Positions 9,170-15,638 of a stretch of DNA of 16,100 nt are shown piece after piece. The DNA is taken from the IMG/VR virus record IMGVR_UViG_2778261673_000002. One strand, written 5' to 3'. Below the pieces are notes generated by a model, which was given only the letters and a program-made list of their open reading frames with translations, ran no database searches and was not told where the DNA came from. Made by a program: the position numbers and the translations under genes. The stretch's first letter is position 1. Each line of letters begins with the position of its first letter. This stretch comes from a virus (lineage: Duplodnaviria; Heunggongvirae; Uroviricota; Caudoviricetes).

Positions 9170-12850
<3,681 letters not shown>

Positions 12851-12876
<26 letters not shown>

Positions 12877-13396
12877 TCAGCAACCCCGGTATCAGTTCAT
12901 CCAGCGCGGCTGCTTTGTTCATGGCTTTGATGATATCCCGTTTCAGGAAATCAACATGTCGGTTTTCCAGTTCCGGAAAACGCCGCTGCACCGACAGGGG
13001 GATCCCGTCGAGAATACTGGCAATTTCACCTGCGATCCGCGACAGCACGAAAGTACAGAATGCAGTTTCCACCACTTCAGCGGAGTCTCTGGCATTTTTC
13101 AGCTCCTGTGCGTCGGCCTGCGCACGCGTAAGTCGATGGCGTTCGTACTCAATAGTCCCTGGCTGGAGATCTGTCTCGCTGGCCTGCCGCAGTTCTTCAA
13201 CCTCCCGGCGCAGCTTTTCGTTCTCAATTTCAGCATCCCTTTCGGCATACCATTTTATGACGGCGGCAGAGTCATAAAGCACCTCATTACCCTTGCCACC
13301 GCCTCGCAGAACGGGCATTCCCTGTTCCTGCCAGTTCTGAATGGTACGGATACTCGCACCGAAAATGTCAGCCAGCTGCTTTTTGTTGACTTCCAT
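12851..13396 (-). CDS. Nu1: Terminase small subunit Nu1 (181 aa)
   Basis: 181-aa ORF MEVNKKQLADIFGASIRTIQNWQEQGMPVLRGGGKGNEV... matches lambda Nu1 and is the first gene downstream of cos. Confidence 0.95.
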
Positions 13397-13573: not shown

Positions 13574-13585
13574 AGGTCGCCGCCC
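13574..13585 (-). other. cosN cohesive-end sequence (12-nt overhang region)
   Basis: Plus strand AGGTCGCCGCCC, reverse complement GGGCGGCGACCT (the lambda cohesive end), flanked by CGCGGGTTTTCGC (left-end side) and CGTAACCTGTCGGATC (right-end side). Confidence 0.9.
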
Positions 13586-13620
13586 CGTAACCTGTCGGAT
13601 CGCCGGAAAGGACCCGCAAA

Positions 13621-13637
13621 ATGATAATAATTATCAT
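13621..13637. repeat. Perfect 17-bp palindrome ATGATAATAATTATCAT between cosN and the next ORF (candidate cosQ-proximal protein-binding site or operator)
   Basis: 8-bp arms ATGATAAT / ATTATCAT around a single central A; lies about 36-52 bp from the cosN nick position. Confidence 0.4.
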
Positions 13638-13784
13638 CTACATGTCACAACGTGCATCTACGCCATCAAACCACGTCAAATAATCAATTATGACGCAGGT
13701 ATCGTATTAATTGATCTGCATCAACTTAACGTAAAAACAACTTCAGACAATACAAATCAGTGACACTGAATACAGGGCAACCTC

Positions 13785-14018
13785 ATGTCAACGAAGAACA
13801 GAACCCGCAGAACAACAACCCGCAACATCCGCTTTCCTAACCAAATGATTGAACAAATTAACATCGCTCTTGATCAAAAAGGGTCCGGGAATTTCTCAGC
13901 CTGGGTCATTGAAGCCTGCCGCCGGAGACTGTGCTCAGAAAAAAGAGTTTCTCCTGAAGCAAACAAAGAAAAGAGTGACATTACTGAATTGCTCAGAAAA
14001 CAGGTCAGACCAGATTGA
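13785..14018 (+). CDS. Small hypothetical protein (77 aa) with ribbon-helix-helix-like N-terminal region
   Basis: ATG at 13785. The segment RNIRFPNQMIEQINIALDQKGSGNFSAWVIEACRRRL fits the RHH pattern (beta-strand, helix, G-turn, helix) of Arc/CopG-type DNA binders, with a basic N-terminus. The 5' part of the gene lies in lambda-like right-end sequence. Confidence 0.55.
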   Translation: MSTKNRTRRTTTRNIRFPNQMIEQINIALDQKGSGNFSAWVIEACRRRLCSEKRVSPEANKEKSDITELLRKQVRPD

Positions 14019-14075
14019 AGCAATTTAGATAATCGTGCAGACTACGCCCCATCATATCACATGGAAGGTACTACA

Positions 14076-14486
14076 ATGGCTCAGGTTGCCATTTTTAAAC
14101 AAATATTCGATAAAGTGCGAAATAATTTAAACTATCACTGGTTTTATTCTGAACTAAAACGTCACAATGTCTCACATTACATTTACTATTTAGCCACAGA
14201 GAATATTCATCTTGTTCTTGAAAACGATAATACGGTTTTAATAAAAGGACAGGGTAAGGTTGTAAATGTAAGATTTTCAAAAAATAAATGCCTTATAGAA
14301 GCCACCTTAAAAGGATTCAAATCAGGAGAGTTATCATTTTACGAATACAGGAAAAATCTTGCTACAGCAGGGGTTTTCAGATGGATTACAAATATCCACG
14401 AAAACAAAAGGTATTACTATACCTTTGATAATTCATTACTATTTACTGAGAACATTCAGAACACTACACAAATATTTCCGCACTAA
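14076..14486 (+). CDS. Hypothetical protein (136 aa), tentatively YbcV/DUF1398-like; AT-rich accessory gene
   Basis: ATG at 14076 preceded by GGAAGG at good spacing (the ORF-track start at 14061 is less likely). Visibly AT-rich codon usage unlike the structural genes. Size and position (between lysis genes and cos) resemble ybcV of lambdoid prophages; the family assignment is from memory and unverified. Confidence 0.55.
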
Positions 14487-14531
14487 ATCATAACGTCCGG
14501 TTTCTTCCGCGCCAGAACCGGACTCGCTGGC

Positions 14532-14696
14532 ATGATGAAATATGTGTACCCGGTAACCCCGGTGTGCATCGTTTTTGATTATTCCCGCACACTCACGCAG
14601 AAGGAATTCCCCGTCGGGCTACGGTCATGGTTAATGCGGGAATACGGCGACGATACAGCGTATGATGTGTCAGGCTTGAATACCTTTATCCGTTAA
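14532..14696 (+). CDS. Possible small ORF (54 aa), hypothetical
   Basis: Hand-translated ATG..TAA ORF MMKYVYPVTPVCIVFDYSRTLTQKEFPVGLRSWLMREYGDDTAYDVSGLNTFIR, below the ORF-track length cutoff. No convincing Shine-Dalgarno; may not be expressed. Confidence 0.25.
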   Translation: MMKYVYPVTPVCIVFDYSRTLTQKEFPVGLRSWLMREYGDDTAYDVSGLNTFIR

Positions 14697-15000: not shown

Positions 15001-15489
15001 TTAATAGCCATCAGAAGTAATCGCTACAGATTTCAATCCCTCAATGTCATCCTTGGACAGGGCGAACCATTCACCGTGCTTTCTCTTTGCGGCAAATTTG
15101 CGATGAAGCATGTTTTCAGTTTCTCTTCCACCAGGGATCAGGCACTCAAGCTTCAAGCAGTCTGGTCCAGAGTTGCCAAGCGATTTGATGCGTTGTGGAA
15201 TGTTGGATGAATACCCAATTTTGGTTAGCCCAGTTTTCTTCGATGACAAAACGTATACCTGAGGAGGTTCTTTTCTCTGGTCTTCCATTACACGTCTCAT
15301 TGTTGCCATAAGTCCGCCGTGCATCAGCATTTCAACAAAGAACGCTGACCGAACACCTGACGACTTAAGCATGCCAGAAAATTCACTTGCCAATTCCATT
15401 AACTCTGCGATGTTTTCAGGAACTTTTTGGCAGTTATCTTCCTTGTATAAGGAAATCATTCTTTGAAGCTTTTCTTCTAATTGGTTCAT
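15001..15489 (-). CDS. T5orf172 / GIY-YIG-like domain protein (162 aa) with an uncharacterised helical N-terminal region
   Basis: C-terminal segment VYVLSSKKTGLTKIGYSSNIPQRIKSL....HRKFAAKRKHGEWFALS carries the GIY / KIGxT / R / H / EWF motif series of the T5orf172 (GIY-YIG-like) family. Start placed at ATG 15489 (MNQLEEKLQ..); the ORF-track start at 15525 is a GTG. Not part of lambda as I recall it. Confidence 0.7.
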   Translation of the reverse strand: MNQLEEKLQRMISLYKEDNCQKVPENIAELMELASEFSGMLKSSGVRSAFFVEMLMHGGLMATMRRVMEDQRKEPPQVYVLSSKKTGLTKIGYSSNIPQRIKSLGNSGPDCLKLECLIPGGRETENMLHRKFAAKRKHGEWFALSKDDIEGLKSVAITSDGY

Positions 15490-15638
15490 AGCGTCTTTAC
15501 CTTTTAGAAAGTGAGCCTGTCTCACAGAAAAGCCGCCCCGAGATGGTCGCCACCATATACGGCAGTTCTCAGGCTCAACTTTCTGAAAGGCTCGGGTGAT
15601 GTAATATGCGCGTGAGATGCGCTGTGAAATTCAGATGT

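Follow-up and report, generated by a model that had tools for sequence, protein, structure and literature searches.

The closest described relatives of the locus examined here lie in Escherichia coli K-12 and at the right end of lambda. In Qin of K-12, ynfO (b4533) and ydfO (b1549) follow one another in this order on the same strand, with lengths of 77 and 136 aa and a spacer of about 57–58 nt, and they adjoin the Nu1-type terminase gene nohA, located on the minus strand. At the right end of lambda and in DLP12, the order is ylcI (64 aa), ybcW/gp79 on the opposite strand, and ybcV/p78; lambda p78 has been scored as non-essential. The lambda “morons” bor and lom share several properties with these genes, as they too lie within or next to late-gene regions, are not needed for plaque formation, and vary in presence among lambdoid phages. 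They differ from ynfO and ydfO in having known products and in being expressed in lysogens (PMC7067206).

Small DNA-binding proteins provide further points of comparison. Arc and Mnt of phage P22 (Arc family, PF03869) are ribbon-helix-helix (RHH) repressors that are, like YnfO, small and phage-encoded. Type II toxin–antitoxin systems with RHH antitoxins (HicAB, ParDE, CcdAB, and RelBE) resemble ynfO–ydfO in gene order, with a small putative RHH protein encoded upstream on the same strand.

The stretch of DNA analyzed here (16,100 nt of IMG/VR virus record IMGVR_UViG_2778261673_000002, Caudoviricetes; hereafter the window) carries a pair of the same kind. ORF1 (13785..14018, + strand) is a ynfO-type gene of 77 aa, and ORF2 (14076..14486, + strand) is a ydfO/ybcV-type gene of 136 aa. 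An initial annotation of the window, made from the sequence, had proposed that the two form a small module in which an RHH protein precedes a partner, with a mosaic breakpoint inside the first gene. The pair is already annotated, as ynfO–ydfO (ylcI/ybcV), in K-12 and in thousands of other genomes.

Gene layout at the right end

The window is a lambda-type genome, prophage or phage, in reverse orientation, with the pair occupying its right-end accessory region. ORF calls place terminase A at 10951-12876 and the Nu1 terminase at 12851-13396, both on the minus strand. The 12-nt cosN cohesive end was read from the sequence at 13574..13585, where AGGTCGCCGCCC is the reverse complement of lambda bp 1-12. 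Position 13586 of the window corresponds to lambda bp 48502, and it is here that the alignment with the lambda right end begins in both blastn and MAFFT. ORF1 and ORF2 come next, in the interval from cos to the lysis genes, and run antisense to the late operon. No Rfam family was matched in the window.

This arrangement is common. Chlobot (99.6%), Kati, PhiR49_1, and ev099 are near-identical phages, and the region was matched in 3800 of 5426 complete E. coli genomes, with about half of the genomes (2676/5426) matching at ≥80% coverage. In the matching E. coli genomes, the RefSeq labels are “YlcI/YnfO family protein” and “DUF1398 domain-containing protein”.

ORF1 belongs to the DUF3950 family

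ORF1 is a member of the DUF3950, or YlcI/YnfO, family, as it matches Pfam PF13132 with 74.6 bits (cutoff 25, E 5e-21) and NCBIfam NF041551 with 35.7 bits (cutoff 30), and 75 of its 77 residues (97%) are identical to Qin YnfO of E. coli K-12. Family alignments and an AlphaFold2 (AF2) model delimit a conserved core in codons 1-50 (13785..13934, + strand), made up of a basic N-terminal arm, a putative beta-strand (RNIRFP), and two helices. Against divergent loci, dN/dS across these codons was 0.04-0.25. One such comparison is with loci in which the DUF3950 gene accompanies an HNH-type packaging module. There, homology to ORF1 begins exactly at the ATG and the upstream DNA is unrelated; over the 50 codons, 17-24 synonymous and 6-10 non-synonymous differences were counted, giving a dN/dS of 0.04-0.14.

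These values bear on whether ORF1 is a gene at all, as its conservation could also be due to cis-acting cos-proximal DNA or to recent recombination. Lambda, DLP12, Qin, and the window have 95-99% DNA identity over the entire block that reaches from cos to codon 54; the reference lambda annotation has no gene at this position, and ylcI is absent from the feature lists of the reference and classical lambda records. However, such a reading is ruled out by the codon-substitution pattern in the HNH-type loci together with homology that starts at the exact ATG, and the curated Pfam and NCBIfam families also speak against it, leaving it with next to no probability. Both ORF1 and ORF2, for which selection is considered below, are real genes under purifying selection.

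The position of the DUF3950 gene is as constant as its core. In the window it separates the lysis genes from the packaging module and reads away from the terminase genes, and across the family it holds this slot beside two unrelated modules, one composed of Nu1/A with cos and the other of HNH, Terminase_2, and TerL. It is always a few hundred nt or less from the right end of the genome. Constancy beside two unrelated packaging modules would be expected if ORF1 served the packaging or entry end of the genome, either as a cos-proximal DNA-binding factor or as an early gene on the virion DNA end that is injected first. However, accessory genes, among them bor, iss, rha, KilA-N, and T5orf172, usually occupy this slot as well, so that position by itself is weak evidence for a role of this kind. 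DNA with a minimal cos fragment of about 200 bp can be packaged in the absence of an ORF1-type gene, which also counts against a packaging role. We consider a packaging or entry function very unlikely.

ORF2 is a DUF1398 protein

The initial annotation had likened the second gene to YbcV/DUF1398, and this was borne out: ORF2 matches Pfam DUF1398 (PF07166; YbcV/YdfO/YcgX) with an E-value of 3e-43 and is 76% identical to YdfO (PDB 2HH8), thereby matching both a family model and a solved structure. No signal peptide or toxin signature was found in it. As had also been stated, it starts on the same strand 58 nt downstream of ORF1 (ORF1 end 14018, ORF2 start 14076). An in-frame ATG at 14061 would lengthen ORF2 to 141 aa, but the same ATG is out of frame in lambda, which makes 14076 the conserved start; GGAAGG lies just before it, at 14063-14068. 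The annotated lambda p78 frame (177 aa) is probably 41 codons too long.

Although the Qin pair otherwise corresponds closely to that of the window, its ORF2 allele differs (the 76% protein identity given above). E. albertii and many IMG/VR prophages carry copies with 100% identity to the allele of the window. For ORF2, dN/dS was 0.18-0.39. Its central third shares only 68% DNA identity with Qin, and positive selection was considered as a cause. This was rejected, as dS is also high in this part of the gene and dN/dS is 0.14-0.37; the divergent middle appears to be old or mosaic rather than positively selected.

Searches of ORF2 with PADLOC and NCBIfam were empty, and the neighborhoods of distant DUF1398 homologues had nothing in common. 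The labels “head protein” and “envelope protein” that are attached to some DUF1398 proteins are unsupported here. A reported effect of YdfO overexpression against oxidative stress (PMC4077768) was also set aside, as the source (Wang 2010) names YfdO of CPS-53, not YdfO.

A mosaic boundary inside ORF1

To locate the junction with lambda, the window was aligned with the lambda right end by blastn and in a four-way MAFFT alignment (window, lambda, DLP12, and Qin). A first collinear block (13586..13947, + strand; 95% identity) comprises the region upstream of ORF1 and ORF1 codons 1-54, and is also matched by DLP12 and Qin. Window–lambda mismatches cluster from 13932, and the alignment stops at 13947. 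The initial annotation had expected a lambda match that diverges from about 13935, an estimate that proved accurate to within about 12 nt. A second collinear block, corresponding to lambda p78 and the region upstream of bor, spans 14002..14660 (+ strand) with 83% identity, which is also the DNA identity of the DUF1398 gene to its lambda/DLP12 counterpart.

Between the two blocks, the window has a ynfO-type-specific segment of 54 nt (13948..14001, + strand; codons about 55-72), where lambda and DLP12 have 613 nt instead. Those 613 nt hold the tail of the 64-aa YlcI and, in the opposite orientation, ybcW/gp79, together with the stretch by which the annotated p78 is extended at its 5' end. The YlcI tail, TSEKRAYTSIKSDEE, differs from that of the window and is shorter. 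The window is thus not collinear with lambda throughout: as predicted, a recombination junction lies within the coding sequence of ORF1, with collinearity breaking abruptly in its 3' part and resuming just as abruptly at 14002, as is seen at lambdoid mosaic junctions (here, 54 nt against 613 nt). A 14-nt direct repeat, TGCTCAGAAAA[A/C]AG, at 13932-13945 and 13990-14003 roughly brackets the 54-nt segment and may be a microhomology mark at the junction.

What the initial annotation had called a new C-terminal tail is not new. The window and Qin are collinear across the entire ORF1 with 99% DNA identity in the four-way alignment, and the 77-aa tail is the common Qin YnfO form. Across the family, at least eight natural tail types occur after ...CRRRL (residue ~49-50). 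In other prophages the first block ends at lambda-RC 409-411, and in those with a lambda-type tail homology is lost ~15 nt past the stop of the 64-aa YlcI. Given the varied tails and the alternative break points, the conserved unit consists of cos and the first ~50 codons, and its right edge is a zone of recurrent recombination. The difference between the window and lambda is an ordinary mosaic module boundary of the kind routine among lambdoid phages.

Is ORF1 a ribbon-helix-helix protein?

The initial annotation had also recognized an Arc/CopG-like RHH signature in ORF1, a claim that fared unevenly. In its favor, hhalign of YnfO against the Arc family (an alignment of matches from a search with the P22 Arc sequence, annotated Arc, PF03869) placed YnfO 11-34 on Arc 8-31, that is, on the beta-strand and helix A. 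The significance of this match was P 0.004, with a probability of only 7-8%; of 300 column shuffles, 1 attained this score, and reversal of the alignment gave a much lower one. YnfO and Arc have a common motif in register, N-[IL]-R-[FW]-P-x-x-[MV]-[IL], followed by a helix, G-x-S, and a second helix. The AF2 monomer of ORF1 fits this register, with residues 1-18 extended and helices at 19-32 and 34-54, where pLDDT is about 85. YnfO departs from Arc in its longer Arg/Thr-rich N-terminal arm, its longer second helix, and its variable tail, and an operon of the arc-ant type is not present around it.

Sequence-HMM and fold searches did not uphold the signature. No significant RHH match for ORF1 was found among PDB sequences with phmmer or with a profile hmmsearch, BLASTP of ORF1 against Arc returned nothing significant, and a Pfam scan of 23 DUF3950 family members gave no RHH family at E-values up to 10. 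A HicB-like PHROG match (E 0.007) was a further, faint signal in favor of the RHH reading. Foldseek with the AF2 monomer against PDB and BFVD gave nothing below E 1. The top PDB matches were TCP-domain factors, and a chain of the Rv0301/Rv0300 toxin–antitoxin complex stood at rank 8, all with E-values above 4. These Foldseek negatives are weak because the model has an overall pLDDT of only 70 and is a monomer, which cannot form the intermolecular sheet. Consequently, we treat the RHH reading of ORF1 as a likely but still putative one, with weak support from the Arc register and the modeled helices.

Regulatory signals around the two genes

Upstream of ORF1, the sequence and the listing of inverted repeats revealed a perfect 7-1-7 Fur-box palindrome, TGATAATAATTATCA, at 13622..13636, with its center 156 nt from the ORF1 ATG. 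Of its K-12 counterparts, the site listed under “nohA” scores 22.3 bits and was bound by Fur in a gel shift, and the one under “nohB” scores 25.3 bits (PMC2189734). A predicted sigma70-like promoter on the minus strand overlaps the Fur box, and the consensus scan found no sigma70 promoter on the plus strand upstream of ORF1. Closer to the gene, at 13683-13724, are inverted repeats (ATCAATTA...TAATTGAT and TTGATctgcATCAA) that are identical in lambda, DLP12, and Qin. We considered whether the lambda-type and HNH-type upstream regions have an operator in common and rejected this, as the upstream DNA is unrelated.

A second palindrome, AACAGGTCAGACCAGAT, resembles a PdhR box and lies over the last codons of ORF1 (13999..14015), exactly where lambda homology resumes. 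The PdhR box identified in vitro by gSELEX at Qin ynfO/ydfO, AAcaGGTcagACCAgaT, is identical to it, and in K-12 the mRNA of ybcV was 10-fold lower in a pdhR mutant (both PMC7660256). Lambda and DLP12 keep GGTCAGACCAGATTGA upstream of the DUF1398 gene, as does the window. Further downstream, GATAAT at 14028..14033 (+ strand) was read from the sequence as a possible -10 element of a promoter belonging to ORF2, and its position is kept in lambda, DLP12, and Qin; for want of a -35 element, it was not picked up in the consensus scan. As the PdhR box stands where homology resumes and is followed by GATAAT, ORF2 very probably carries its own regulatory region. No terminator was called between ORF1 and ORF2 by the consensus scan, and the RNA fold of the spacer was no better than that of shuffles (z -0.29), with no stable hairpin. 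Consequently, read-through from ORF1 into ORF2 would also be possible.

Linkage and separability of the two genes

Among the 80 closest loci in IMG/VR, all of the 77-aa type, a DUF1398 gene follows 60 nt downstream in 79, and the single exception has an IS5 insertion. This linkage arises because the 77-aa tail and the ORF2 leader are one contiguous piece of DNA. Elsewhere, the two genes are found apart. YlcI occurs next to terminase genes without DUF1398, its neighbor being instead a Rha-family gene, a hypothetical gene and gnsB, or iss. Beside the HNH/Terminase_2 packaging module, DUF3950 again occurs without DUF1398 and adjoins either an oppositely oriented 82-aa ORF plus a KilA-N gene or Rz1 itself. 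Conversely, at about 35 enterobacterial DUF1398 loci no DUF3950 ORF lies within 3 kb, and a conserved small ORF upstream is also lacking; among these are loci of Citrobacter, Klebsiella, Kluyvera, Raoultella, Pseudocitrobacter, and Salmonella diarizonae, as well as E. coli ycgX. Even where both genes are present, as in lambda and DLP12, ybcW/gp79 on the opposite strand separates ylcI from the DUF1398 gene. Judged by this distribution, ORF1 and ORF2 appear to be separable accessory genes, each widespread without the other.

This pattern weighs heavily on the comparison that the initial annotation had drawn with antitoxin–toxin and regulator–effector pairs. In a type II toxin–antitoxin system or a similar obligate module, ORF1 would be an RHH protein that neutralizes a toxic ORF2 and regulates its own expression. 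In its favor, a small DNA-binding-like protein is encoded ahead of a larger one on the same strand and no terminator intervenes, ORF1 has the weak HicB-like antitoxin match in PHROG, and ORF2 stands behind ORF1 in 79 of the 80 loci with the 77-aa tail. However, either gene is common without its partner, and stand-alone chromosomal DUF1398 genes such as ycgX remain intact. The 613-nt insert of lambda and DLP12 brings in an oppositely oriented gene, and a PdhR site lies ahead of ORF2. At 57 nt, the spacer leaves the genes neither overlapping nor abutting, as they would be in a tight operon. The remark that nothing marks ORF2 as a toxin held up in full, as PADLOC, Pfam, and NCBIfam assigned it no toxin or defense family. 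The window pair is therefore unlike known type II systems in its non-obligate co-occurrence, its lack of toxin-family homology, and its lack of gene overlap, and in the intervening gene that some of its relatives have. The gene distribution largely refutes the toxin–antitoxin reading, to which we assign only a minimal probability.

A looser connection would be a facultative regulator–target pair in which YnfO is a dedicated repressor or activator of the accessory gene downstream of it, here the co-transcribed ydfO. The common strand, the 57-nt gap without a terminator, the Arc-like core seen with hhalign, and the inverted repeats at 13683-13724 that are identical in lambda, DLP12, and Qin would all be in keeping with this. 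However, the HNH-type loci keep the protein core next to unrelated upstream DNA, and so there is no common operator; downstream neighbors are often on the opposite strand; and ORF2 has a site of its own for a host factor, PdhR. A functional link between ORF1 and ORF2 is possible within the tightly linked arrangement of the window, but a dedicated pair strikes us as unlikely.

Discussion

The explanation that we favor, and consider likely, is that the window carries two accessory genes that are separable and run antisense to the late operon, one for an Arc-like regulator and the other for an independent DUF1398 protein with a PdhR box. It builds on the family membership of the two proteins, the purifying selection on their genes, the coordinates of the junction, and the independent distribution of the genes. 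ORF1 would most likely be a small Arc-like RHH protein that binds DNA, with its function residing entirely in the first ~50 residues; DNA contacts would come from the basic arm and from a beta-strand fitting the major groove, and dimerization from the two helices. Such a protein could act as a small transcription regulator, probably on its own promoter region, which would make it autoregulatory, and perhaps on neighboring accessory genes. Its C-terminal tail would be dispensable, recording where the packaging-module block was joined to downstream DNA.

ORF2, in turn, is a cytoplasmic alpha/beta protein with the fold of YdfO (2HH8); its gene has a PdhR box and a candidate promoter in front of it and, in this particular arrangement, could also be reached by read-through from ORF1. 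Both genes are presumably expressed from the prophage, and ynfO and ydfO would be “moron”-like accessory genes.

More speculative, and rather improbable in our view, is a broader role in which DUF3950 is an Arc-like regulator of lambda itself, held at a fixed site between lysis and packaging genes with a Fur box upstream and a PdhR box downstream. A regulator so placed might couple the iron or pyruvate state of the host to transcription into the cos/terminase region or of the right-end accessory genes, or might act from the end that is injected first.

The 77-aa tail is no novelty, and the discovery value of the locus is small; what is useful in the analysis is corrective. What the family offers beyond this is a strongly conserved 50-residue protein, probably Arc-like, at the right end of lambda-type genomes beside a Fur-binding site. 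The ynfO–ydfO pair should stay off lists of candidate toxin–antitoxin systems.

ORF2 alleles and gene boundaries

[quoted passage not shown] Among the IMG/VR loci, ORF2 was found as two alleles, at 100% and approximately 75% identity. Taken together, the discrepancy between the two genes and the split between alleles imply an additional, putative mosaic boundary either within ORF2 or immediately 5' of it. The pairing itself was broken at one IMG/VR locus (L087, 400-1460), where an IS5-family transposase lies directly 3' of ynfO and the DUF1398 gene is absent, the sole exception among 80 loci of the 77-aa type. At the end of ORF1, a PdhR-box-like palindrome (13999-14015) overlaps the final codons and is identical to the gSELEX site of the K-12 ynfO/ydfO interval; lambda homology restarts at this palindrome.

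Candidate regulatory sites near cos

A Fur box with a perfect 7-1-7 arrangement, TGATAATAATTATCA, is present at 13622-13636; approximately 36 nt separate it from the cos end, and it precedes ORF1 by 156 nt. Its K-12 counterparts, which had been attributed to nohA and nohB, reach 22.3 and 25.3 bits, and the Qin counterpart was positive in a Fur gel shift (PMC2189734). This putative site is positioned between the terminase gene and ynfO/ylcI and could serve either one. It also overlaps a sigma70-like promoter on the minus strand (GTGACA-16-TATCAT; 13621-13648), which is directed toward cos and Nu1.

Annotation of lambda homologs and DUF1398 proteins

Lambda p78 is annotated as a 177-aa “putative envelope protein” (928-1461 of the reverse-complemented lambda right end, L001, versus 14061-14486 in the window). 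Its 41-codon N-terminal extension is not kept in the window or in Qin, and from the conserved start p78 is 136 aa, matching the corrected K-12 ybcV entry. Inspection of the sequence by eye showed neither a signal peptide nor a membrane segment. Lambda also carries an intact YlcI/YnfO gene of 64 aa (L001 200-394, or lambda bp 48303-48109, complement), which is missing from the J02459 features and from the table of lambda genes in the CRISPRi study, where the final entries are bor, p78, and p79.

DUF1398 proteins are labeled “head protein” in PHROGs (phrog_413), RefSeq phage records (e.g., NC_049953 and NC_049951), and pharokka-style annotations; a virion role found no support among the results of the present analysis. 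Names have been mixed up in the literature, with ydfO (Qin) confused with yfdO (CPS-53). The oxidative-stress phenotype given for YdfO (PMC4077768, PMC9181523) is one of YfdO in the cited source (PMC3105296).

The genome contig search also returned the lambda right end in approximately 30 species-representative “genomes” of unrelated phyla (L019-L042, L051-L055), including Pedobacter, Flavobacterium, Brevibacillus, Kitasatospora, and Bradyrhizobium, with 71-76% protein identity to ORF2. Because the contigs are either ~3.5 kb or ~48 kb, these copies look like contaminating lambda control or spike-in DNA.

Neighboring genes

Downstream of ORF2, a 54-aa plus-strand ORF (14532-14696), “hypothetical” in phages Chlobot and ev099, had no match in Pfam, PHROG, PADLOC, or NCBIfam. 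At the DNA level, this ORF shows 83% similarity to the p78-bor interval of lambda. At roughly the position of lambda bor, the minus strand encodes a 174-aa protein with a T5orf172/MUG113 domain (15001-15525; Pfam E 7e-15; phrog_4284), which had a weak PADLOC match to PDC-S57 (8e-6). In related phages, the same slot is occupied by KilA-N, Rha, or Ant-like genes, and antirepressor-like DNA-binding genes are thus recurrent near DUF3950.
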